13,199 nt of DNA from a virus (taxonomy: Duplodnaviria > Heunggongvirae > Uroviricota > Caudoviricetes). Below the pieces are notes generated by a model. That model had not been told where the DNA came from. It ran no database searches and saw only the letters and a program-made list of their open reading frames with translations. Of this stretch, positions 1-11,918 are shown in pieces (position 1 is the stretch's first letter; every line of letters starts with the position of its first letter). Both the position numbers and the translations under genes were made by a program. The stretch lies in the IMG/VR virus record IMGVR_UViG_651053023_000013, positions 1-13,199 of that record; one strand, written 5' to 3'.

Positions 1-160
1 AGTTTGCTCCTGCCATAACGTGAAGAAGCAATGACCTGGTGGTCCGTGACTTCCCTACGCTGGCATTATCCAGATCAGGTGATACGGGTATTTCTTACTG
101 ATTTTTGTTATCAGTTGATAATTAATAAGTTTTTCAGCAAACAAGAATTAAAAACTTCAA

Positions 161-184
161 AACTGACCACACAACTGACCACAC
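161..184. repeat. Perfect tandem direct repeat AACTGACCACAC x2 in an A/C-rich non-coding stretch
   Basis: Read directly: aactgaccacac at 161-172 and again at 173-184; no coding context. Confidence 0.6.
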
Positions 185-408
185 ATTTTGTTGAAGCTCT
201 ACGAACAAAGACGAACAATAACAAACAAAAGGGAAATTTGCTGGCAGTTTTGCTTAACCGTTATCATTTTTCGGCTATCCGTTATCAAGCTGGTGGATGA
301 TCACGGATAACCCGTTATGGGAATCCCCATATCGGCATCATGCCCACCAGCATGAAGTATTTTTCGCGGATGTAAAAATTTGACGGGGCGGGCGGTCCCA
401 TAAGCAAT

Positions 409-440
409 GGGGGGGTAGGGATTCCGCTCCCCCCCCTCCC
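409..440. other. G7 ... C8 homopolymer pair able to form a GC-rich stem-loop; T5 run follows about 10 nt downstream
   Basis: ggggggg (409-415) - tagggattccgct - cccccccc (429-436) - tccc, then gaatgcaattttt. Possible plus-strand intrinsic terminator or slippage-prone tract. Confidence 0.35.
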
Positions 441-474
441 GAATGCAATTTTTCTTATATATATACAAAACAGT

Positions 475-627
475 GCGGGTTATGCGGGTTAGCGGGTTAT
501 CTTCGCGTGCTAAGTATTTTTTATTCTTTAATATCAATGCGTTAAAAAATGATATGTTTGAATATTAGCCAAAACGTAACCCGCAAGACATTCAAAATAA
601 CCCGCAAATACCCCCCAAATAACCCAC
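475..627. repeat. Origin-like iteron module A: three abutting GCGGGTTAT copies, AT-rich spacer, three inverted ATAACCC(G/A)C copies at 21-22 bp phasing
   Basis: Direct copies at 475-483, 484-491, 492-500; AT-rich 501-574; inverted copies at 577-584, 597-605, 619-627. Same 9-mer and mirror-image layout as module B at 9640-9771. Confidence 0.6.
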
Positions 628-915
628 AACCCCATCAGGAAAATGGGGCCAGTGATGCCACCGAACGGCTGAATCTGGTAACGTTCTGTTGCCTGGTTGC
701 AGTTTGCGGGTCAGCAATACTGACGCACAAAGTTAGCCGTATGTGGCTGTGCGTCCACCAGCTACGCCGGAATGGGGTATTCCGTTTCAACGGAACAGGT
801 ATGACGAATATGATCGCACCTTCTCCCGAAAACGGGTTTGCCTGTTTCGGGAAAACGGGCACATGAAGCTGCATAGACATTTTCACTATTCAGGATCTGG
901 CGGGGGAGTTTCTCA

Positions 916-1085
916 ATTTCCACCGTTGGTGGAAATTAAACGAATACAGCGAGTTAGGACAAGGTGACTAATGGTCACTCTGTTGCTGCGTCACCATATT
1001 GATGATCCAGCCCTGTAGTCGCGCCACTTTTCCACCAATGGTGGAAAAGCCCACAGCAGGCCGCCCAGCCTCCCCCAATGGGGGA
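916..1085. repeat. Cluster of perfect palindromes sharing CCACC/GGTGG-type half-sites (candidate protein-binding sites)
   Basis: ATTTCCACC-gtt-GGTGGAAAT (916-936); GTGAC-aatg-GTCAC (965-978); CTTTTCCACCA-a-TGGTGGAAAAG (1027-1049); TCCCCCA-a-TGGGGGA (1071-1085). All read directly. Confidence 0.6.
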
Positions 1086-1190
1086 TTGTGGAAGAATCAA
1101 CGGGTTAGGCCTTAATCATCTGCGTAATCATAAGTAATCATAATGTTCATTCATCCAGCGCAATTTTGCGTTATCGGGAATATCAGCAAG

Positions 1191-1475
1191 TTACCGCCGC
1201 AACCGCTCCGGCTTCTTCCAGTGGTAAGTTATTTTTTCCTTCTCCCGGTACATCTCCACGCGGCGACGATATGACAACAACTCCAGAACTCTGATCCGTA
1301 TGTCGCGCATATCCACGCCGTTAAGCTCAATACCGTCACGGCGCATCACCTCAGCCACCACACGCGCGTAATTTTCGGCTATCACGCTGTCCGGCTGCGT
1401 GGCCTCCTGTTTGCCTGCTTCCTGGCTGATTCCGGTAATGCGGCGGATTATTTTTAGTAGTTCGGTTTCGCTCAC
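1191..1475 (-). CDS. Hypothetical small basic protein (94 aa) immediately downstream of the large terminase
   Basis: ORF starts with GTG 5 nt after the terL stop, with only a weak GGGG upstream; basic C-terminus; no recognisable motif. Confidence 0.35.
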   Translation of the reverse strand: MSETELLKIIRRITGISQEAGKQEATQPDSVIAENYARVVAEVMRRDGIELNGVDMRDIRIRVLELLSYRRRVEMYREKEKITYHWKKPERLRR

Positions 1476-1480
1476 TCTCG

Positions 1481-3142
1481 TTATACCCCATCAAACGCCG
1501 CAAGCCGCTCTTTGTGGCTGTCGCTCATATCGAATGCAAATTCCTCATGTTCTGCCTGGAATGTGCCAAACGCCATCAGCGCCGCAACGCTCGGGTCTAT
1601 CTTGTTGGATGATTTTTTCTTGTTCGGCTTGATATTGGCGTTCGCGTCACTCTGCATCACAACATTACTCATTGACCAGGCCAGCACCGGATCGCCACGA
1701 TGCACAATCACCTTCCGGTTAACAAAAACTTCGAACGATTTCGCCGCCGGACTGAAACGAAGGTATGTTTGCGGGAACGGCTCCACCTCAAATCCTGCCC
1801 CCTGTAGCTGCGTCCTCAGGTGCGTGGCGTTCCATGTATCGAAGCCCACCAGCCTGATATTGAAATTCTCTGCATCCGCCATGATGTCATCACGGATACG
1901 GTCATAATCAATGCAGTCACCCGGTGTTGTGCGTATCCAGCCCGCCTTTACCCACTGGCGATAGATGGCGCGGTTTTTATTGGCGGGGTTCTGTAGCTGA
2001 AACTCCGGCAGATAGTGACGGGAAACCAGCATAATCTTTTTACCGACCGGAAAGGCATAGCACACGCTGGAAATATCGCTGGTTGATGATAAGTCCAGCC
2101 CCGCGTAGCACTCCTGCCCGTATAAATCCGCCTCCGCGAACGTTCCGGCGCACTCCGCCCATGCACCGTTACCCATCCACGGCGTGGCCCCCTGACACCA
2201 GATATTGAATCGCTTGGTGAGCATTTCCACCCACTGCGACGGAATACCCCGCGCTTTCTGGATGGTTGAGGCCAGTTTTTCACGATCGACGGAAACATCG
2301 ATATTGGGATTCGCCTTTATCCACATCGCCGGATCGTCAACCTCGCTTTCATCATCCAGCTCGTAAATCAGCACGAACATGGATTCGTTCACCTCTTCAC
2401 CATCCAGTATCTGGCAGCAATAGTCGTAGTGTTGTTTACAGGCTGAAACAACGTTGCTCCCCGATGTGGTGATGGCAAATAATAACCCCTCCGGACGCGC
2501 CCCCATTCCCAGTTCAAGCGCGGAATAAACCCCGTTGTCAGGGTGCAGGTGATATTCATCCACAATGGCAAGACTCGGGTTTGTACCTTCAATGGTTGCC
2601 GCTTTTGCTGCCAGTGGCTTTAACAGGCTGTTGGTTTTCGGGTGTATCACCTTGTGTGCCTGAATATTTACCCGCTTTCGCAACGGTCGGGATAAAAGGC
2701 ACATCTGACGCGCATCATCAAACACGATCCGCGCCTGATCACGACTCACGGCGGCGGTGTAAATATCCTGCTGCCCGTTTTCCATAACCAGAAACCAGTT
2801 AGCCAGGATAGCGGCGACCGTGGATTTGGCATTTTTTCGCGGCACTTCAATGAATGCGCTGGTGTATTTGCGCCGTCCGGTGGCCTTAACCTTAAAGCCC
2901 AGGATGCACGCAAAGGCGAACTGCTGCCACGGCTCCAGCTCAATGGGGCTACCGCGCATTGCGCCTTTTACGTGCGGACACACCCTGGAAAAGGCAATAA
3001 ACCGCTCCACGACCTCCGGATCGAACGTGTAAAGGGGGTTTTCAAGGTCAGAAAAATACCGTTTAACGGCCTGTTTCAGTCGTTTACAGGCCGTAATTTT
3101 GCCGTTTTTTACGCCTTCTGCGTACTCATGCCAGGCGGTCAA
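1481..3142 (-). CDS. terL: Terminase large subunit (HK97-type, Terminase_1-like ATPase/nuclease)
   Basis: 553-aa ORF with a P-loop-like VPRKNAKST and conserved acidic blocks (LAIVDEYH, VLIYELDDESEVDD). Apparent TTG start at 3140-3142, preceded by GAGGA at 5-nt spacing and overlapping the terS stop by 17 nt. Confidence 0.9.
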   Translation of the reverse strand: MTAWHEYAEGVKNGKITACKRLKQAVKRYFSDLENPLYTFDPEVVERFIAFSRVCPHVKGAMRGSPIELEPWQQFAFACILGFKVKATGRRKYTSAFIEVPRKNAKSTVAAILANWFLVMENGQQDIYTAAVSRDQARIVFDDARQMCLLSRPLRKRVNIQAHKVIHPKTNSLLKPLAAKAATIEGTNPSLAIVDEYHLHPDNGVYSALELGMGARPEGLLFAITTSGSNVVSACKQHYDYCCQILDGEEVNESMFVLIYELDDESEVDDPAMWIKANPNIDVSVDREKLASTIQKARGIPSQWVEMLTKRFNIWCQGATPWMGNGAWAECAGTFAEADLYGQECYAGLDLSSTSDISSVCYAFPVGKKIMLVSRHYLPEFQLQNPANKNRAIYRQWVKAGWIRTTPGDCIDYDRIRDDIMADAENFNIRLVGFDTWNATHLRTQLQGAGFEVEPFPQTYLRFSPAAKSFEVFVNRKVIVHRGDPVLAWSMSNVVMQSDANANIKPNKKKSSNKIDPSVAALMAFGTFQAEHEEFAFDMSDSHKERLAAFDGV

Positions 3143-3481
3143 GCTCGTCCTCTTCCTCTGTTTCCGGTGGATTTCTGCGGCGACTTACCGGGTCAAAACC
3201 CAGCAAAGAAGCCATTTTGATCATTATTCTTTCCGCGTCAGCCTTTGCGCTCAGGGCGGGGTTTCTGCTCTCGCTGCCCTGACTGTTAACAATGCTGAAC
3301 CCGCGCGTGGCAAGGTCTTCGACGGCTTTGCGGTATATGGAGTAGTTAACGCAATAAGCTCCAGATTGCTCCAGTCGGCGGGGGTAAGGTCTTCCCGTCC
3401 GGAAAGCTGGCGCGATTTTTCCTTCCACTGCCTGACCGCGATTTCATCCAGGTAAGCGGGGGCTTTTGGTGGTCTTGCCAT
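3126..3481 (-). CDS. terS: Terminase small subunit, P27-like family, split across two reading frames (apparent -1 frameshift near 3345-3365)
   Basis: N-terminal part (ATG at 3479-3481, MARPPKAPAYLDEIAVRQWKE...LTPADWSNLEL) is in one frame and stops at 3251. The family-typical C-terminal part (AYCVNYSIYRKAVEDLATRG...MASLLGFDPVSRRRNPPETEEEDELDRLA) is in the adjacent frame and ends at 3126 overlapping terL. No slippery heptamer at the junction. Confidence 0.6.
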
Positions 3482-3599
3482 GTTCTTTTTTCGCCCAATT
3501 ATTTTCAAAAAAAATCCCGTGCACAAAAATTTGAGGAGGCGGTCGGTGTCCGGCAGGGACGGTTTGTCCTGAAAACCTCCCCCACCCCCTCTGACAGCC

Positions 3600-3785
3600 T
3601 CACCAGCGATTGCGAAAACATTCCATGACCTCGCGGTCACGGTCGGTTAATTGCTTCGCTGTGGTGCGTTCTGTGCGCCCTGTCCTGTTGGCTTTGTGCC
3701 CTGTCTCCTGTGTCTTCCATAAGTCACGCTGCCTTATCAGTCCACGTATCAGCCTGTTTTGCTCCTGTTCAGTCATCATCGCCAT
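3600..3785 (-). CDS. Hypothetical small basic protein (61 aa) between HNH and terS
   Basis: ATG at 3783-3785, 9 nt after the HNH stop; weak ribosome-binding site; no recognisable motif. Confidence 0.3.
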   Translation of the reverse strand: MAMMTEQEQNRLIRGLIRQRDLWKTQETGHKANRTGRTERTTAKQLTDRDREVMECFRNRW

Positions 3786-3796
3786 ACATCCAGTCG

Positions 3797-4210
3797 TTAC
3801 GGTGTGCCGCCCGTTCTTCCTGCTCGCGATACATGACCCGCCTTACGGTTCGCTTTCGTGGCTGGATCTTCCCGTGTCGTCTTACGGTTGTGGCACGTCT
3901 GGCACAATGCCTGGTGATTCCACTCAGGCCAGAAGAGAACATCACCGCCGCCATTGATGGGAATGATGTGATCCACCACAAGAGCTGGCGTATAAATCCC
4001 CTTAGCCAGACAACGCACGCATAACGGGTTTTTGCTCAGGTACAGGGCGCGGTATTTGTCCCACTGTCGGGAATACCCGCGCGCGCGGCGGTGTCCCCGT
4101 CTGGCATCCTCTGCACGCCATGCAGCCCGCCTGTGCTCTTCACACTTTCCGGACTTCACGCGCTTATTACAGCCCGGCTCAGTGCAGCGCCTTAATGGTT
4201 GCCACGGCAT
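3797..4210 (-). CDS. HNH endonuclease (packaging-associated)
   Basis: N-terminal Cys cluster CTEPGCNKRVKSGKCEEH, then HNH core VVDHIIPINGGGD ... WNHQALCQTCHNRKT. ATG at 4208-4210 overlaps the adaptor stop (ATGA). Confidence 0.9.
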   Translation of the reverse strand: MPWQPLRRCTEPGCNKRVKSGKCEEHRRAAWRAEDARRGHRRARGYSRQWDKYRALYLSKNPLCVRCLAKGIYTPALVVDHIIPINGGGDVLFWPEWNHQALCQTCHNRKTTREDPATKANRKAGHVSRAGRTGGTP

Positions 4211-4509
4211 CAGTACACCCCCACATCACGATAAACCGACCAGAGCGCAGAAATAGCCATAGGCAGTTCAGACTGCTCCACAGGTGAAACCGCTTCCCTG
4301 TTCTCGTACAGGAAAGCGATGTACATCAGGCAACCAACACGTATTGCCGGGGTAAATTCCAGCCCGTCTTCAAAACGTTTCCCGATATGCTTCTGGCAGG
4401 CTTCCAGCGCCGCATCGGTATACATTTTCAGAAGTTCGCCTTCTCCGGAAAAGTCATCAAGGCGAAGATGTGCCCTGACTTCATCAGGTGTAATTTTGTC
4501 TTCACTCAT
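4210..4509 (-). CDS. Head-tail adaptor/connector protein (HK97 gp6-like)
   Basis: MSEDKITPDEVRAHLRLDD...AIRVGCLMYIAFLYENRE matches the gp6-like pattern. ATG at 4507-4509 has an AGGTG Shine-Dalgarno and overlaps the portal stop by 8 nt. The tracked ORF start at 4596 is a GTG lying 95 nt inside the portal gene and is rejected. Confidence 0.7.
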   Translation of the reverse strand: MSEDKITPDEVRAHLRLDDFSGEGELLKMYTDAALEACQKHIGKRFEDGLEFTPAIRVGCLMYIAFLYENREAVSPVEQSELPMAISALWSVYRDVGVY

Positions 4510-5716
4510 CTTTTTCACCTTTAATTTCCACAGTCTGCTTCCATGCCTGGCTGAACTCGTCGCCACCTTCACGCGGCGGCATTCCCTCACGCTCACGGGC
4601 TTCGTTCGGATTCATGATCCCGTTCTTAATCCCTTTCTCATACGTGGCGTAACGTTCAGTAGGTGTGGCGCGCAGTAAATCGGCTGAATCAAACTCAACC
4701 AGATAACGGGTACCAGGTACGGGAGAAGCCACCAGCAAAGCGGCCTTGATTTGCTGTTCGAAGTTCGCCAGCCACGGACGCATTGTCATAGTCAGAAACG
4801 CGCGGCTTGCCTCACTGAAATTGCTGTAGGTGCTGTTGCTGTATTCCTGCAGAAAAATCGGCGACACGTTGAACATCCGGGCGATGTCTTCAATGGAGAA
4901 GCGACGGGAGGCCAGCCATTCCGCATCCTGGTTACTCATCCCCAGTTGCTTGTAATCCATGCCCCCTTCAAGGATTGGCGTTTTTCCGGCATTTTTCGCC
5001 CCCTTGTAGCGTTCCAGTGCGTCTAATGCCTGTTTACCTTTCACGCCGTCCAGCCATTCGCCTGACGTGATAATCCCTGCCGCCATCATGCCATCTTTCA
5101 TAATGCTGGCTCCGTGACGCTGTTGAGCAAGGCCAAGCCCCAGCGCCTCACGGCAAATCGTGATGGGGGAGCGTCCCAGAAAGCCATCATCCGAGGCATA
5201 GCGGAGATGCAGAACTTCTTCCTGTAAATACGTGCGCACCGTTCCTGTACAGGGTTCGGTGATGGTATAGCGGTATTTGTGTGCGCCTGTGCGTTCCGGT
5301 ACAACACACCCCGGCGCATAAGGATGAAGTGATTTTGGCTGACCGTCCCGCCCCCATTCAATAACCGCATAGGCGTTACCGTTCAGCAGGCAGTGACGCA
5401 TCATTGTGCGTTTAAACTGGTAAGGTGTCTGGCACGAATTAGGCTGCTCATTCAGCAGAATATCTACCGGATGACTGTCCAGCCATTCCCGCGCCTCCCT
5501 GCCCTTGTCATTACGTACCAGATACAGATAACACGGCATCGTGGCCACCGCCTCAGCGATGACGGAAACCGCGTTCATCACTGCGGGCAATGATTCAGCC
5601 GTCCCGGCAGAAACATATTCTCCGGATCCGGTATTCGGTACGCCGGACAGCACCAGAAAATCATCAATGGACAGGTTACGTTGCTCGCTTTTTTTACGAC
5701 TAAAAGGCCACCACAT
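4502..5716 (-). CDS. Portal protein (HK97 family)
   Basis: About 405 aa from ATG at 5714-5716 (MWWPFSRKK...), which follows the protease stop by one base (TGA-T-ATG). The longer tracked ORF begins at a TTG inside the protease gene. Confidence 0.85.
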   Translation of the reverse strand: MWWPFSRKKSEQRNLSIDDFLVLSGVPNTGSGEYVSAGTAESLPAVMNAVSVIAEAVATMPCYLYLVRNDKGREAREWLDSHPVDILLNEQPNSCQTPYQFKRTMMRHCLLNGNAYAVIEWGRDGQPKSLHPYAPGCVVPERTGAHKYRYTITEPCTGTVRTYLQEEVLHLRYASDDGFLGRSPITICREALGLGLAQQRHGASIMKDGMMAAGIITSGEWLDGVKGKQALDALERYKGAKNAGKTPILEGGMDYKQLGMSNQDAEWLASRRFSIEDIARMFNVSPIFLQEYSNSTYSNFSEASRAFLTMTMRPWLANFEQQIKAALLVASPVPGTRYLVEFDSADLLRATPTERYATYEKGIKNGIMNPNEAREREGMPPREGGDEFSQAWKQTVEIKGEKDE

Positions 5717-5717
5717 A

Positions 5718-6278
5718 TCACAACCCCGCCAGCTCTGCCCAGCGATGACGATTATTTCCTGCCGGGCGTAATTCAGGGTGCTGTGCAAACAACGAACGGT
5801 GGGCAATCTCCACGCCAGATTCGGGATAAGCAGGCATCGACGTGATCGTGATTTCCCTGAGTTCTGCAGCGGTAACAGTACGCAGATACGGTTTTTGCGC
5901 GATATTCCACTCTTCGCATAATGCGCGAAAGCCAAAGCTCATCCCTGTAATGTCGCCACGCTCCACCAGCGTAAGCACATCTTTTCCAAGCTGGGTATCA
6001 GGCGGTGTCAGTTCAAAACGTAGCCCGGTGTTGTCCTCAGTCAGTACCAGAGTGCCGGATTTGGTGCGCCCCAGCAGTTGGGTATAGTCATGCTCATACA
6101 GGCAGCGCACATCATTACCCGCCGCCAGATAGTCAGCAAAAGCCCCCGGCGTGAACTGTTCGCGGAATTCGTCCCAGATAATTTCTGAAAGGCTGTTCCA
6201 GCGAACGGCATACCCCACCAGCTTTTTATTGCTGGCGGTCAGTTCAGATGTGCGGATTTCAAAATCGGTGTTTTTCAT
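5718..6278 (-). CDS. Prohead maturation protease (HK97 family, S78/U35-like)
   Basis: 186 aa, placed between capsid and portal; typical HK97 protease length and sequence character. ATG at 6276-6278. Confidence 0.85.
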   Translation of the reverse strand: MKNTDFEIRTSELTASNKKLVGYAVRWNSLSEIIWDEFREQFTPGAFADYLAAGNDVRCLYEHDYTQLLGRTKSGTLVLTEDNTGLRFELTPPDTQLGKDVLTLVERGDITGMSFGFRALCEEWNIAQKPYLRTVTAAELREITITSMPAYPESGVEIAHRSLFAQHPELRPAGNNRHRWAELAGL

Positions 6279-6332
6279 CGGTGTACTCCATAAAGCTGAA
6301 AAAGGAGGCCGCAGCCTCCTCCTTACTCATGA

Positions 6333-7502
6333 CTAGCCAGCTTTCATTTCCAGAATTTTGATGGCGTTTGAATCCACCACACCACCGCCCAGATATTTAT
6401 CCGTGTGGACCTTGTAGAATCCGGGTTCAGTAATGTTGTCCGGTCGGGTGCGAATCCCTGTTACATGATCAACGATGAAATAACCACGACTGAAATCGCC
6501 AACCGCTAGCGGTGCTTTTCCTGCGCCGATGTCCGGCATGGACTCCAGGCAGAAAACAGGACGACCAAGCAACATATCCGGCGCACCTTCTTTAAGGCTG
6601 TCGCGCCAGATATAATCGCCATTCTCATTTTTCAGCTTCTGTAGTGTCCCTGCCGTGCCCGAGTTCATCACCCAGACGGCATTTTTGCGGTATTTCGCTT
6701 TCAGCTTGTAGAGAATGTCGATCAGTTCGTCCGCTGTAATGGCGGTTCCACTTGCCGCTACCACTTTTTCAATGGTGCCAAAAGCGCGGGTTTTGTCACT
6801 GGTCGCCGCACGGGTGTAAGCCATGAAGCCTTTCGGCTTGCCGTTACCGTCGCCATTAACAAAATCATCCTCTTCGGTGCTGGCGAACGTGTCGGCAATT
6901 TCGGAGGATAACCAGCCCAAAATATCCACCTCTGAAAAATCCAGGATTTCCTGCGTGGTTTTCGGGTAGGCGTAGATCTGATTCAGCTTGATGGTTACAC
7001 GTTCAATTTTCGGGGTGTTGGTTTCACTACGTGCGCTGCCTTCTGTGCCTCGTCCTACAGTTGCGCCGCCAGTGGAAACCAGTTTCTGAAACTCATTTGA
7101 TTTTGCGGTCTTCACGGTCGCGATCACGCGCATAACACTGTCATCCTGTAGCTGGCGCATGACTTCGCGATCAAGCTCAGGAATTACGGTATATCCGCCA
7201 TCCCTGCCGCTGTCAGTGCTGGTGGACAGTGATCGCACATCTCCGGTTACGATGTAGTTACGCAATTCATCAGATGATAATTTCTGGATGCCCGTTCCTG
7301 GCTTGCTGCGTTCTTCATCAGCCACAGACTCGAGGCGGTAAATTTCTGTGTCGAGGGAATCGGCTTTTGCACGCAGTTCATCAAACTGTTTGCCCTCGTC
7401 ATCGTTCAGGCTGCGGTTTTCACTGTCGGCTTTTTCCAGCAGGGATCGCATCTGGTTTTTCAGGGCGGTTTTTTGCTGGCGGAGTTCGATTAATTTCTTC
7501 AT
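6333..7502 (-). CDS. Major capsid protein (HK97 fold) with N-terminal coiled-coil delta/scaffold domain
   Basis: 389 aa; N-terminal heptad-rich region (MKKLIELRQQKTALKNQMRSLLEKADSENRSL...) followed by an HK97-type capsid body. ATG at 7500-7502. Confidence 0.9.
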   Translation of the reverse strand: MKKLIELRQQKTALKNQMRSLLEKADSENRSLNDDEGKQFDELRAKADSLDTEIYRLESVADEERSKPGTGIQKLSSDELRNYIVTGDVRSLSTSTDSGRDGGYTVIPELDREVMRQLQDDSVMRVIATVKTAKSNEFQKLVSTGGATVGRGTEGSARSETNTPKIERVTIKLNQIYAYPKTTQEILDFSEVDILGWLSSEIADTFASTEEDDFVNGDGNGKPKGFMAYTRAATSDKTRAFGTIEKVVAASGTAITADELIDILYKLKAKYRKNAVWVMNSGTAGTLQKLKNENGDYIWRDSLKEGAPDMLLGRPVFCLESMPDIGAGKAPLAVGDFSRGYFIVDHVTGIRTRPDNITEPGFYKVHTDKYLGGGVVDSNAIKILEMKAG

Positions 7503-7572
7503 GAAGGTTTTCTCGTATTGGTTAAGATTCAGGACGTGAAACCAACACGGAGGGAGCGCCGCCCGACACTCT

Positions 7573-7621
7573 CGGCATCTCGCAGATCAACCCGGCATCG
7601 CGCAGGGGGTCAGGCGGCATT
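7573..7621. promoter_or_regulatory. Three direct CGGCAT(C) repeats at 20-22 bp phasing upstream of the capsid operon (candidate activator sites for a late promoter)
   Basis: cggcatctcgcag (7573-7585), cggcatcgcgcag (7593-7605), cggcatt (7615-7621), in a GC-rich block 70-120 bp upstream of the capsid ATG. No good sigma70 -35/-10 lies between the block and the ATG. Confidence 0.35.
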
Positions 7622-7726
7622 GTGGCGGCTCACGTCTGAGTGCCACACGCCAACATATACATAAAAATCAGTATGTAAACATCAGCCAGAATCACCGAAC
7701 AACCTGGAACAACCACGAACAAATAA

Positions 7727-7757
7727 TTTACAAAACCTGAAAAAAATGGCCTATTAT
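7727..7757 (+). promoter_or_regulatory. Putative sigma70 promoter of the AT-rich accessory gene
   Basis: TTTACA (7727-7732), 19-bp spacer, TATTAT (7752-7757); AGGA ribosome-binding site 6 nt before the ATG at 7789. Spacer is longer than optimal. Confidence 0.3.
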
Positions 7758-7788
7758 TGCTACCTCTGACTACAACAAAGGACGCATC

Positions 7789-8295
7789 ATGAATTTAAGC
7801 GCAATGGTATACCCTGATACTTTCATAATTAATGGCGAATCATTTAAAGGTAAAAGAAACGCAAAAGAAAACAAGGTATTAATTCCATATACAAATGAAC
7901 CGGAAGTAACTATTGGTCAACACATTATCCAGTGTGTCGGTAAAAACGAGATAAATCTAAAAATTATAGATATGAAGTTGCTTCCCAATGGAACCCTCAG
8001 ACAGGGAACCAACCATCCAAATATGTTGACGCTCTATATTGAAAATATCACGGGAAATGAACATATGACGCCACCTAAAAGTAATACATTTAACATTGGT
8101 TCAATTAGTGGTAATCAAGTGCAGATAGGTGAGCATAACCATATGCTGGTAAACATCAGCATCACTGAACTGGTTGAAAAAGTCTCTAAATCGGGGGATG
8201 TACAAGCCAAATCAGTATTAAAGCAGTTACTGGAAAACAGTACCGTTGCCAGCATTGTTGGGGCTGGCGCAAGTGCCTTAATAGGCTTACTGTAA
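7789..8295 (+). CDS. Unrecognised 168-aa protein with C-terminal hydrophobic glycine-zipper segment; AT-rich accessory gene (moron)
   Basis: Only credible plus-strand gene inside the island. Roughly one-third GC by eye against about half in neighbouring genes. Own promoter, ribosome-binding site and terminator. C-terminal ...NSTVASIVGAGASALIGLL is a likely membrane anchor. Internal NIGSISGNQVQIGEHNH is not assignable from memory. Confidence 0.7.
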   Translation: MNLSAMVYPDTFIINGESFKGKRNAKENKVLIPYTNEPEVTIGQHIIQCVGKNEINLKIIDMKLLPNGTLRQGTNHPNMLTLYIENITGNEHMTPPKSNTFNIGSISGNQVQIGEHNHMLVNISITELVEKVSKSGDVQAKSVLKQLLENSTVASIVGAGASALIGLL

Positions 8296-9575: not shown

Positions 9576-9639
9576 GCTGTCTGCTCTCCGGTTTTAACGT
9601 TGATGGTTACGCTTGTTTACACCCTTACGGTGAAATTCT

Positions 9640-9771
9640 GCGGGTTATAATCGCACTTTTGCGGGTTATAACTGCCGTTTTGCGGGTTACGTGCGGGTTA
9701 TTGATTTCCTTTTTATTCATACAGTTAATGCACTTATATACATGATAACCCGCATAACCCGCATAACCCGC
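9640..9771. repeat. Origin-like iteron module B: four GCGGGTTA(T/C) copies at 21/21/11 bp phasing, AT-rich spacer, three abutting ATAACCCGC copies; immediately downstream of the primase-helicase gene
   Basis: Direct copies at 9640-9648, 9661-9669, 9682-9690, 9693-9701; AT-rich 9702-9744; inverted copies at 9745-9753, 9754-9762, 9763-9771. The primase stop is at 9795-9797. Confidence 0.7.
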
Positions 9772-9794
9772 AACTTTTCACCTCACACAGGGGG

Positions 9795-11918
9795 TTAATC
9801 TTCTGCCTCAGGCTGGAACATCAGCACGTAAAAAACATGCTGCTTCCCCCCAATTTTGCCGAGCGCCTTTTTCTTGTAACGGCGATCGTTACCCGCTTCC
9901 AGCATTCCGGCAGCACTCAACGCGCGGGCAAAGTGAGACGGATTAAATCCCTGTGCTATCTCACCCTCAAATACATGCGGGAACGTGTAAAAACGGAACT
10001 CGTCATCTTCGTTTCTGATACTCCCCTTTCTGTATCCGGCAAGCTCTTTAATCGGTAAATCACGCTCGTCGGTGTTGGGCCACGGAAGGTATCTGCTGAA
10101 TCCGAACGACGCTAAAAAAGCCTCTGCCTGTTCAACCATCTGTTTAAACTCCCTGTTACCCGTGCCGAACTCCTTCACCCAGGCATTAAAATTATGCTGA
10201 ATGGCATCGCGGCACGCCTGAACATCCCAACCAGTAATATGGACGGAAAGCACCAGCGCCGACTCCAGCATGGCGAATCGTTCCCCCACACGGTGAACCT
10301 GTTCGCCGTAACTCTCCGGTATCAGGTTGCGCCACCGTTCACGGCATGCCCTTACCGTATCCTTTGCCTCCTGCTGGTGGTCTGCCAGCCATTTAACCCA
10401 TTCACGCCCCGCCGCCCCGTGATTTTCTGTCCAGGCATCCTTTAACGCGTCTGCGTGTGCCTTTCCGGTGCTGTATTCGTGAAACTGCGTGGCTTTTTCC
10501 ATTGGCACGTTAAGCAGGCGGACAAGCTGCCCCGCCTTGACTTTTATCCCCTCCGTTTTGAGGAATGTCTCAACGTCCATTTCTCCGGTGCTGATTGCCA
10601 CCGTGCGCCAGTGTTTGATCTCCCTGTTGCCGCCGTCCTTCGCCCCCTGTAATTTCCCCGAACCGTTAAACAGCGTATAAGCCGACGTGGACACTTCCCG
10701 CGCGTTTCCGGCCTGACCTATTTCATCCAGGGGTAATAGCCCGTCATTGTGCGCCTCTGCCTCGTTGGCGATGCCTAACGCTGTACCGTACCAGGTCAGC
10801 CGTTGCGCGTCCGGCTCTCCCCATAAACTGGATGCGATGTTCTGTGTGGTGGTTTTCCCTGCCGATGACTGTTCGAAAAGATGTACCCCGAAGCCGTCAG
10901 CACCCACCAGCCCGATTAATGGTGCGGATAACGATACCGCCACACCCAGCATCATGGACGGATTACCACCAGCCAGCCGCGCAACGATATCGCGCCAGCC
11001 CTCCGCCGTTCCTGCCACGGAATAGCCATTAACAGCAGCCGTTTTTCCGGTAAACAGGACTGGCTTTTCGCAATCACCAATGACCGAACCGTCCGGCATG
11101 ATGTACGCGCCAAAATGCCAGCCCGTTGTTGTGCTTAACTGCCATTCCTCATGGCTTCCGCTTAACTGCATCCAGTCAGCCAGGATAGCCCTGTATTTAC
11201 CGTTGGTTGTTACGTTCAGTCCGTGGTCTTTCAGCAACCGCCAGCCGTCACGGTCGCCAATGCCACCGCACGGAACCGCCATTGTGATGACTTCATGGTT
11301 TGCTAATTTTTTCCAGCGCATCACGCGGTAATGCTCTTTACCGATTGTCCCCGTTCCCAGTAGTTCAAGCGGGGAACATAACCACGTCTCAGGCCGGATA
11401 ATTTCGCCTGACTGCTTATCCACTTTTGGCGTTACCCAGAAAACACCATCGGCGCGACTTTCAACGCGGGGCTTTAATTCATCATCGCCCTGGATTTCTG
11501 TGATTTTTTTCTTTAAGGGCAACACCAGACTTTCCCCGCGCTCGTATTCGTCTTTGAGGCGAGGCAACTGGTCGGATAAATCCGCCGGGCTGATGTCAGT
11601 TATCCCCGCGTATTCGTATACGGTCTTCACGCCAGCCACAGCCAGCAACGTGACGATCTGTGTAAGGCTACGTTCAGTGATGTGCCCTGCGCGGTAAACA
11701 CGCACACACTGACGGCTATCATCAATAATTTGATAACCGGTAATATCTTTCAGGTGTTCATCTGACAGAACGACAGGCGGCACATTGTCGGCGGCAATAT
11801 GCTTACCTGCCCATTCCTGCCACTCTTTCGCATGGCTCCACGCATCACTACCCGCAAAGATGATAACCTCCGTCATTTTGTCGGCTGGCTGGTGCTTTAA
11901 GTTTGGTGCGCGCTTCAT
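9795..11918 (-). CDS. Replication initiator: Toprim-like primase N-terminus plus DUF927/SF3-type helicase-like domain
   Basis: 707 aa; P-loop FEQSSAGKTTTQNIASSLWG and Walker B-like LLPLDEIGQAG; N-terminal region resembles a Toprim primase fold. ATG at 11916-11918 overlaps the upstream stop (ATGA). The iteron module follows directly. Confidence 0.8.
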   Translation of the reverse strand: MKRAPNLKHQPADKMTEVIIFAGSDAWSHAKEWQEWAGKHIAADNVPPVVLSDEHLKDITGYQIIDDSRQCVRVYRAGHITERSLTQIVTLLAVAGVKTVYEYAGITDISPADLSDQLPRLKDEYERGESLVLPLKKKITEIQGDDELKPRVESRADGVFWVTPKVDKQSGEIIRPETWLCSPLELLGTGTIGKEHYRVMRWKKLANHEVITMAVPCGGIGDRDGWRLLKDHGLNVTTNGKYRAILADWMQLSGSHEEWQLSTTTGWHFGAYIMPDGSVIGDCEKPVLFTGKTAAVNGYSVAGTAEGWRDIVARLAGGNPSMMLGVAVSLSAPLIGLVGADGFGVHLFEQSSAGKTTTQNIASSLWGEPDAQRLTWYGTALGIANEAEAHNDGLLPLDEIGQAGNAREVSTSAYTLFNGSGKLQGAKDGGNREIKHWRTVAISTGEMDVETFLKTEGIKVKAGQLVRLLNVPMEKATQFHEYSTGKAHADALKDAWTENHGAAGREWVKWLADHQQEAKDTVRACRERWRNLIPESYGEQVHRVGERFAMLESALVLSVHITGWDVQACRDAIQHNFNAWVKEFGTGNREFKQMVEQAEAFLASFGFSRYLPWPNTDERDLPIKELAGYRKGSIRNEDDEFRFYTFPHVFEGEIAQGFNPSHFARALSAAGMLEAGNDRRYKKKALGKIGGKQHVFYVLMFQPEAED

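Follow-up and report, generated by a model that had tools for sequence, protein, structure and literature searches.

EcCIEDL933 is the prototype of the capsid-forming PICIs (cf-PICIs). Helper-phage induction and transfer in small, island-made capsids with helper tails have been shown for this element only (bioRxiv 10.1101/2022.09.08.507074). Mutating each gene of its packaging module abolished transfer with the helper phage present, save for one hypothetical gene whose mutation caused a severe reduction only, and replication was left unaffected (bioRxiv 10.1101/2022.09.08.507074). The packaging of the island and that of the helper were described as mutually exclusive and independent (Alqurainy et al., bioRxiv 10.1101/2022.09.08.507074). 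A further system of reference is that of HK97, in which the small terminase gp1 (PDB 8POP) takes part in HNH-dependent cos packaging (PNAS 2024, PMC11331095).

Gene content of the island

The window, i.e. the whole stretch of 13,199 nucleotides analysed here, carries a cf-PICI, an E. coli phage-satellite island of a well-known kind, inserted upstream of thiM, with the unique thiM flank at window positions 1-330. The island context assumed in the original prediction is thus correct. The element encodes its own packaging and capsid proteins, as recognised from Pfam matches and annotations in the window and in near-identical relatives. These include the major capsid protein (6333-7502), prohead protease (5718-6278), portal protein (about 4502-5716), head-tail connector (about 4210-4509), HNH endonuclease (3797-4210, minus strand), and the small (TerS) and large (TerL) terminase subunits. 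The terL gene (1481-3142, minus strand) has a TTG start and is intact; its 553-aa product, a widely distributed protein, was found in exact form in 1788 collection blocks and is annotated as terminase large subunit in the relatives. An intact, conserved ORF of 61 aa (3600-3785, minus strand) is located between hnh and terS; it is identical to the 61-aa product of locus L008 and is called in most relatives.

The replication genes coding for DUF927, SSB and DUF4222 proteins, together with iteron-like repeats, are present inside the window. The alpA and integrase genes lie past its right end and were found at the matching place in relatives L022, L043 and L046. Tail and lysis genes are absent both from the 13.2-kb window and from its annotated relatives. 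The size taken as characteristic of cf-PICIs is that of a satellite, about 15 kb. Neither the Rfam search at the gathering threshold nor the tRNA scan of the window gave hits, and PADLOC returned none for four unannotated ORFs, including an accessory ORF of 168 aa.

Structure of the terS locus

The terS gene is located downstream of hnh on the minus strand, and its stop codon (3126-3128) lies within the 17-nt overlap with the terL start at 3142; this hnh-terS-terL layout matches that of the annotated relatives. In the sequence as given, terS (3481 to 3126) is divided between two reading frames, and both pieces belong to one TerS. The frame that starts with the ATG at 3481 encodes MARPPKAPAYLDEIAVRQWKEKSRQLSGREDLTPADWSNLEL followed by 34 out-of-frame residues and is closed by a premature TGA at 3253-3251, which gives a product of 76 aa. 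The -1 frame, without a stop from 3443 onwards, contains AYCVNYSIYRKAVEDL and ends with DELDRLA before the stop codon at 3128-3126.

The change of frame falls between window bases 3357 and 3356, where pairwise and multiple alignments with relatives reveal a gap of one base. The 5' part of the gene (3357-3481), comprising codons 1-41 and the first two bases of the codon for Leu42, is identical to that of intact relatives, and the 3' part (3126-3356), comprising codons 43-118 and the stop, is now in frame -1 relative to the start codon. The missing base is the third position of the Leu42 codon (CTR), which reads GAGCT[G]TATTGC on the minus strand in the alignment with the closest complete genome; across positions 3100-3520 (421 bases) it is the sole difference from that genome. 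Most relatives have G here and the closest have A, corresponding to C and T, respectively, on the plus strand. Restoring it yields a P27-family TerS of 118 aa. An uninterrupted terS ORF of about 118 codons, absent from the window owing to the -1 change at 3356/3357, occurs as an intact single frame in every close relative. The original prediction had recognised two adjacent frames of one TerS, with a switch near 3345-3365; translations, profile matches and the alignment gap agree with this, and the junction falls inside the interval.

Features of the TerS protein

The assignment to the P27 family, which had also been predicted, is supported by two profiles. The Pfam profile Terminase_4 (PF05119) matched the C-terminal frame over profile positions 28-97 of 98 (E=2.6e-16, 60.3 bits) and the one-base-repaired protein over positions 3-97 (E=2.8e-21, 76.2 bits; cut-off 24.7). 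NCBIfam TIGR01558 (sm_term_P27; cut-off 45.6 bits) gave 64.8 bits for the repaired protein, over model positions 1-99 of 116, and 45.0 bits for the C-terminal fragment, which is 0.6 bits below the cut-off. The N-terminal product had no match to PF05119 and no score with TIGR01558.

Residues A35, D36, W37, L40, E41 and L42 do not vary among 20 homologues, which come from several enterobacterial genera, so that the junction falls where the protein is most conserved. An AlphaFold2 model of the TerS monomer, of only moderate overall confidence (mean pLDDT 63.8), places the break in the second long helix (predicted H34-59) of a confidently modelled N-terminal hairpin, with a block-mean pLDDT of about 69-85. 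By functional analogy with HK97 gp1, a TerS truncated at residue 42 would be devoid of the ring core and the C-terminal helix. Searches of PDB sequences with TerS (phmmer with the single protein, and a 20-sequence profile) revealed no relative. The Foldseek comparison of the model with the PDB gave nothing significant; the HK97 TerS (8POP) ranked third (E=3.9, TM 0.36).

Differences from related islands

The closest relatives, L019, L022 and L025, share 99.93% identity with the window over positions 334-7746 (7.4 kb). The differences are limited to two substitutions, at 2216 and 3596, and three single-base indels, at 3356/3357, 3565/3566 and 3836. All three indels fall within 481 bp, namely in terS, in the spacer between the 61-aa ORF and terS, and at the 3' end of hnh; such clustering within 7.4 kb has a p of about 0.012 for the three indels and of about 0.005 for four of the five differences. 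The rest of the window is free of further private indels. In its right half, the differences make up a single clean patch of recombinant, L004-like sequence within the DUF927 gene. A chimeric consensus in that half was considered and set aside: the patch contains no indels and speaks neither for nor against an artefact.

The spacer indel is a private deletion of a base that is T or C in the relatives. In hnh, an extra base is present at 3835/3836, where the window reads CATGACCC and the relatives have CATGCCC or CATACCC. The hnh product is therefore 137 instead of 146 aa long, with the last 21 residues swapped for 12 others; the HNH catalytic region upstream is unchanged. Some relatives carry lesions of their own, such as a split hnh in L009 and L040 and a frameshifted ssb in L002.

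Each of the three indels is located on a site that is bi-allelic among the relatives (C/T, C/T and G/A, respectively), and at 3835/3836 the window holds both alleles in tandem ('GA'). Only about 4-6% of the alignment columns have a minor allele in at least two relatives. Substitution 3596 likewise occupies a bi-allelic site. The L001-type (C, C, A, A) and L019-type (T, T, G, G) haplotypes differ at precisely these four sites. Two of the three indels are outside homopolymer runs and are therefore not typical replication-slippage mutations. An origin from methylation motifs or homopolymers was dropped, since no Dam or Dcm motif was seen in the sequence at the three sites and only the spacer deletion touches a homopolymer.

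Occurrence of the deletion allele

Of the fetched loci, 37 cover the junction, and 36 of these have the additional base of terS. The exception, L029 (P0001), is a contig of 76% identity with two single-base deletions in terS; the first gap lies in a T run, and the second deletion, 80 nt downstream, is uncompensated. L029 was regarded as unrelated noise or decay rather than as something the two sequences share. Of the 501 complete E. coli genomes carrying the gene, none matched the deletion allele at 100%; the best reached 99.8% identity, which corresponds to one gap. A 26-mer across the deletion had no exact match in genome, viral or metagenome collections; the intact allele had 18 matches in IMG/VR. 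No exact record of terS products of 76, 129 or 100 aa was found among 153 billion gene positions, and the exact-product look-up gave no match for the 137-aa HNH and 707-aa DUF927 proteins. The exact 20-mer of the spacer deletion was absent from 47 fetched loci and from IMG/VR, and the exact 21-mer of the hnh insertion was absent from the fetched loci and from genome and metagenome collections. A homology search with the 76-aa product did retrieve other truncated or frameshifted terS variants (P0001, P0002, P0006 and P0007), each with a different lesion.

L026, a draft contig of 228 kb with 99.9% identity, ends at ...AATCTGGAGCT, the base right before the one missing in the window, and 12 contigs of other draft assemblies stop 5-6 nt beyond it, directly in front of the following SNP. 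Assembly graphs behave in this way when they branch between repeat copies. In complete E. coli genomes, up to five places per genome match this region, and CP100025.1 contains two island copies with the same capsid protein.

Origin of the split terS

When repeat copies are collapsed, indels can enter the consensus or assembly at the sites where the copies differ; this is a known class of assembly artefact. Judging from the sequence comparisons, the split in terS is probably an error of this kind, made in a consensus across two co-resident island copies, and not a biological feature. The evidence leans this way because the allele is unique, the indels are clustered and lie on bi-allelic sites, and a near-identical contig ends at the same base. 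The location of the junction in an invariant block, the absence of homopolymers at two of the indels and the known occurrence of several island copies in one genome also speak for it. The true gene would then be an intact 118-aa terS of the P27 family, whose product, like TerS in cf-PICIs generally, would recognise the DNA of its own island and, together with the HNH protein and TerL, initiate cos-type packaging into island-made capsids. One base may have been dropped during consensus building where two near-identical copies differ; the same process would have dropped the base at 3565/3566 and written both alleles at 3835/3836. Read mixing or a contig join is the presumed cause, and the source genome would have to contain a second copy of the island. 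A copy of L001 type does not fit this role in a simple two-copy mixture, because positions 3652, 3690 and 3802, where heterozygosity would be expected, show the clean L019-type allele. The original prediction had preferred a single-base indel, either a sequencing or assembly error or an inactivating mutation, to programmed frameshifting. The comparison with relatives upholds this preference and now favours the first of the two branches.

A genuine private deletion is a possible, though doubtful, explanation. The gene would in that case be a pseudogene with a 76-aa product, in which only the first 42 residues are native, and the 3' two-thirds would be untranslated. The frameshift is indeed in the sequence as given, and a real lesion would be inactivating, as suggested by the position of the break in a predicted helix and an invariant block. 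Apart from the three indels the 13-kb window has no private indels, its other genes are intact, and its overall quality looks good; it is therefore not a generally low-quality sequence, which counts against an error. The rare disrupted terS alleles of other kinds in public assemblies also count against an error, since they indicate that real terS lesions are possible; the split hnh and frameshifted ssb genes of relatives point the same way. On the other hand, three private indels against two substitutions, all of the indels within 481 bp, are very atypical of natural divergence, and each of them sits on a bi-allelic site, one holding both alleles. Known mutational processes, including mismatch repair of a recombination heteroduplex, do not yield such an indel pattern. 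A near-identical assembly, moreover, breaks at exactly this base, and the allele was seen nowhere else in the collections searched.

The phenotype of a real terS lesion is well defined by the EcCIEDL933 mutants, in which transfer was lost and replication kept. With the altered C-terminus of the HNH protein, the island would still be induced, replicate and make capsids and would be unable to package its own DNA. According to the original prediction, a broken island might rely on the TerS of a helper. This conflicts with the experiments on EcCIEDL933, in which transfer was abolished with the helper present (bioRxiv 10.1101/2022.09.08.507074). Rescue would instead need a cognate terS supplied in trans, e.g. 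by a second co-resident cf-PICI; otherwise the island would be immobilised. It is unlikely that all three lesions are real, which would leave a cf-PICI copy that has lost DNA recognition and cos cleavage and retains intact genes for capsid, portal, protease, TerL and replication.

Two explanations that would preserve TerS function were rejected. Programmed -1 ribosomal frameshifting, or another form of recoding, could join the frames so that full-length TerS is still made: the C-terminal frame is the -1 frame, and ribosomes that slipped back by one base right after CTT would produce the wild-type sequence. The zone in which a shift gives a continuous product (3443-3253), however, contains no in-phase X-XXY-YYZ heptamer. 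As the original prediction had noted, the junction lacks a slippery heptamer; a scan of 3481-3126 revealed only two heptamer-type strings, AAACCCC (3264-3258) and GGGTTTT (3201-3195), neither of which is in phase or close to the junction. By codon-anticodon rules, a tRNA-Leu that has read CUU would not be able to pair again with GCU in the -1 frame. No close relative has the two-frame layout; the gene is read in a single frame in 20 aligned homologues, in 501 complete genomes and in all but one of the 37 informative loci. The gap of L029 in the same column, accompanied by the second deletion and the T run, does not mark a conserved recoding site. Since an in-phase slippery site is lacking and the layout is not conserved, recoding is highly improbable. 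The pieces might also be expressed separately and work together as a small terminase in two parts; starting from a GTG at 3428, the C-terminal frame runs for 100 codons without a stop. This ORF, however, begins with 21 out-of-frame residues, and no credible Shine-Dalgarno sequence was seen before the GTG. The N-terminal product bears a nonsense tail of 34 aa, no homologue is organised in this way, and the break interrupts a helix predicted for the conserved core. On such anatomy and conservation, a functional split TerS is scarcely credible.

The main value of these observations lies in quality control. Neither terS nor the shortened hnh of this window should be annotated as a pseudogene or recoding site without support from reads. 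Assembly-based counts of 'defective' cf-PICIs can be inflated, because several near-identical islands often share one genome and terS is a place where assemblies break or are joined wrongly. If real, the terS deletion would be another private inactivating mutation in an already described family of mobile elements, and the island would be predicted to replicate without transfer. Should all three lesions be real, the island would be an immobilised capsid producer that spreads only with TerS and HNH proteins borrowed from a second co-resident cf-PICI, i.e. a satellite of a satellite, or a persisting decoy that uses up helper tails.

Comparison with known systems

The repaired TerS is WP_001353110.1, a RefSeq protein of 118 aa annotated in several complete E. 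coli genomes; in contrast to it, the ORF of the window breaks after codon 41/42 and its N-terminal product is without any profile match. HK97 gp1 has no detectable sequence relationship to this TerS and the structural match is not significant, so that the likeness is one of functional context only: in both cases a cos site is acted upon by TerS together with TerL and an HNH protein.

Among cf-PICIs, the prototype EcCIEDL933 serves for comparison. Both islands share the gene order capsid, protease, portal, connector, hnh, (61-aa ORF), terS, terL, and both have the DUF927 replication gene, SSB and DUF4222 and are devoid of tail and lysis genes. With the TerS of an O157:H7 island adjoining phoQ, which we take to be of the EcCIEDL933 type, the repaired protein shares 88% identity over 108 aa. 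The island of the window nevertheless belongs to another lineage. The differences include a nucleotide identity of only about 86% in terS, the presence of ProQ/FinO instead of PerC, the lack of a head-closure gene, and insertion upstream of thiM and not next to phoQ.

The lesions themselves resemble the artefacts of collapsed repeats. Like these, they are private single-base indels at bi-allelic sites, one of them a tandem of both alleles, and they cluster where related draft assemblies break into short repeat contigs.

Structure of the terS gene

The window comprises most of a capsid-forming PICI (cf-PICI), a well-described kind of E. coli phage-satellite island. Its small terminase gene, terS (3481 to 3126, minus strand), is distributed over two reading frames. 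The start-codon frame extends from an ATG at 3481 to a TGA at 3253–3251 and reads MARPPKAPAYLDEIAVRQWKEKSRQLSGREDLTPADWSNLEL, followed by 34 unrelated residues. The second piece lies in the -1 frame, which stays open from 3443 to the stop 3128–3126 and reads ...AYCVNYSIYRKAVEDLATRGF...EEEDELDRLA. In a profile search of the unrepaired frames, the C-terminal frame alone matched Pfam Terminase_4 (E = 2.6e-16), and a one-base repair gave a match to the near-complete model (E = 2.8e-21). Against NCBIfam TIGR01558 (sm_term_P27; cut-off 45.6 bits), the repaired protein scored 64.8 bits and the C-terminal fragment 45.0 bits; the N-terminal product had no match to this profile. Since the repaired protein matches nearly the whole profile while the fragments match it less or not at all, both pieces belong to one TerS, which by its profile matches is a member of the well-described P27 family. 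The open reading frames and profile alignments thus bear out the original prediction of a single P27-family TerS split across two frames.

Alignment to the best-matching complete genome, that of E. coli 2014C-3075, revealed one missing base as the sole difference over window positions 3100–3520. This base (minus strand, GAGCT[G]TATTGC) is lost between 3357 and 3356. E. coli 2014C-3075 encodes an intact 118-aa TerS (WP_001353110.1), and the comparison with this ortholog agrees with the single-base indel that had been proposed as the cause of the split. The codon for Leu42 thereby lacks its third base. In an alignment of 20 TerS homologs from E. coli, Salmonella, Klebsiella, Lelliottia, and Erwinia, the junction falls in the most conserved block, with A35, D36, W37, L40, E41, and L42 invariant in all 20. 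In the AlphaFold model (overall mean pLDDT only 63.8) it lies inside H34-59, the second helix of a confidently modelled N-terminal helical hairpin.

A programmed -1 shift giving a continuous TerS must fall between 3443 and 3253. The scan of the gene revealed two X-XXY-YYZ-type strings, neither in phase nor near the junction, so that the earlier statement on slippery heptamers stands. The two-frame layout was sought among the close relatives and occurs in none of them. On these two grounds, programmed frameshifting was excluded. A divergent cf-PICI-like contig with 76% identity (L029:3001-3365; Logan ERR12018951) carries two single-base deletions in its terS. One falls in the alignment column of the window's deletion, within a T run; the second, which follows, is uncompensated. 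The hnh and portal calls of this contig look degraded too, so that it reflects noisy reads or else decay of this island copy.

Distribution of the deletion allele

This terS is carried by 501 of 5426 complete E. coli genomes, among which the best match has 99.8% identity, equivalent to the one gap. The extra base is present in 36 of the 37 fetched loci covering the site (30 C and 6 T, plus strand). A 26-mer across the deletion had no exact match in GTDB representative genomes, IMG/VR, or JGI metagenomes; for the intact allele, IMG/VR yields 18. The truncated TerS products that could arise were looked up among 153 billion called genes, and none is on record.

Single-base indels relative to the closest relatives

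The three closest relatives, public contigs L019, L022, and L025, share 99.93% identity with window positions 334–7746. Across this region they differ from the window in only five places, two substitutions (2216 and 3596) and three single-base indels, namely the terS deletion (3356/3357), a deletion in the spacer upstream of terS (3565/3566; T or C in the relatives), and an extra base at the 3' end of hnh (3835/3836 in 3797–4210, minus strand). All three indels (p ~0.012), and four of the five differences (p ~0.005), are confined to 481 bp of 7.4 kb. Each indel affects a site that is bi-allelic among the relatives (C/T, C/T, and G/A), and columns with a minor allele common to at least two relatives make up only ~4–6%. 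Both deletions take out exactly the variable base. At 3835/3836, the window reads CATGACCC versus CATGCCC or CATACCC in the relatives, i.e. both alleles stand in tandem. The spacer and hnh indel alleles were seen in no other sequence examined. For natural divergence, a ratio of three indels to two substitutions would be highly unusual.

The hnh insertion shortens the HNH protein from 146 to 137 aa, with HVSRAGRTGGTP in place of the acidic C-terminus of 21 residues (MYREQEERAAHRNDWMYGDDD); hnh also no longer overlaps the downstream 61-aa ORF, as it normally does by 17 nt. In CP024978.1 (L009/L040), hnh is broken into 39 and 82 aa. The 61-aa ORF and terS are separated by a 118-bp spacer, and the deletion at 3565/3566 sits in a G-rich stretch of it, GGGGGTGGGGGAGG (minus strand). 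Judging from gene order, this stretch might contain the cos or TerS-binding site of the island.

Origin of the deletion

From these sequence comparisons, we think that the terS deletion is probably an assembly artefact, because the indels cluster and each hits a bi-allelic site, one of them with both alleles. A consensus builder merging reads or contigs of two slightly different copies would yield such a pattern; replication slippage and mismatch repair of recombination heteroduplexes would not. Contig ends in other assemblies fit this reading. The draft contig AASZZQ010000001.1 (L026; 228 kb, 99.9% identical) terminates at ...AATCTGGAGCT, which is window position 3357, the base immediately before the missing one. 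Twelve contigs of other draft assemblies stop 5–6 nt further on, just before the next SNP (ends of L030-L037 at window ~3352). Contig ends inside terS in 13 independent draft E. coli assemblies show that short-read assemblies break at a repeat boundary in this gene, which is a recurrent branch point of assembly graphs, since genomes often hold several island copies (up to five matching places per genome). The complete E. coli genome CP100025.1, with islands at 1.98 Mb (L020) and 4.96 Mb (L021) encoding identical capsid proteins, shows that co-resident near-identical copies exist.

A genuine private mutation is the less likely reading in our estimate, given the excess of indels over substitutions and their clustering at bi-allelic sites, but several observations speak for it. 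Private indels are absent from the rest of the window, which otherwise departs from the closest relatives in the accessory cassette 7747–8289 and in the DUF927 gene, where there is a clean recombinant patch. A simple mixture with a copy of the type of the related locus L001 would predict ambiguity at 3652, 3690, and 3802, and the window shows none. Disrupted terS, hnh, and ssb alleles also turn up sporadically in relatives. If the mutation were real, only the first 42 residues of TerS would be left, and translation would end 109 nt before the TTG at which terL starts; were terS and terL translationally coupled, terL expression could fall too. We see in the deletion an assembly artefact or else an ordinary private mutation that makes terS a pseudogene; neither is novel.

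Island organization and integration sites

The genes for DUF4222, the DUF927 replication protein, SSB, and ProQ/FinO lie first from the right end of the window. They are followed leftward by those for the major capsid protein, HK97-type prohead protease, portal, and head-tail connector, and then by the leftmost group, HNH endonuclease, the conserved 61-aa ORF, terS, terL, and a 94-aa ORF, all on the minus strand. TerL has 553 aa, and its gene overlaps terS by 17 nt. No tail or lysis genes were found in the window. The ssb gene of NZ_OZ282453.1 (L002) is annotated as 'frameshifted'.

Between the ProQ/FinO and capsid genes, a 543-bp accessory cassette (7747–8289), absent from the closest relatives and common elsewhere, carries a 168-aa ORF (7789–8295, plus strand). 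This exact protein, which had no match in Pfam or PADLOC, appears in 822 blocks of the collection. Iteron-like repeats at 9636–9772, between ssb and the DUF927 gene, consist of four units TGCGGGTTAT (spacing 21, 21, and 11) and three inverse units ATAACCCGCA in tandem, and are probably the replication origin of the island. Most relatives have one 9-bp unit fewer; the count in the window is shared by L022 and L026. The DUF927 gene contains a recombinant patch (~10050–10900) of the allele type of locus L004, with flanks of L022 type; three substitutions in it (10737, 10752, and 10773) are private to the window. An exact look-up of the 707-aa protein found no record.

The island sits upstream of thiM (window 1–333), and the left 330 bases of the window are chromosomal sequence from there. 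Near-identical islands at other places (compared in the set L001-L005, L006, L007, L010) lie next to phoQ, inside yifB (comM), near a DUF413 gene, or immediately adjoining a prophage terL lacking its N-terminus. In this last case, the island may have inserted into another HK97-like element or stand in tandem with it. The O157:H7 island beside phoQ encodes a TerS that shares 88% identity with the repaired one.

Comparison with known systems

Among the TerS proteins of HNH-dependent cos systems, only HK97 gp1 has a solved structure. It displays no detectable sequence similarity to the repaired TerS, and its structural match to the model of this protein is not significant; the likeness would be a functional analogy only.

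In the prototype cf-PICI, EcCIEDL933, single mutation of each packaging-module gene abolished transfer in all but one case, a hypothetical-gene mutant with severely reduced transfer; replication was unaffected, and helper-phage genes were no substitute (bioRxiv 10.1101/2022.09.08.507074). By analogy, an island with a genuine terS mutation would replicate but not transfer. Its dependence on a helper TerS, suggested in the original prediction, is unlikely, since helper-phage genes did not substitute in EcCIEDL933. Rescue could come from another co-resident cf-PICI that supplies a cognate terS. A truly immobilised, capsid-producing island that needs the TerS and HNH of a sibling island appears improbable to us.
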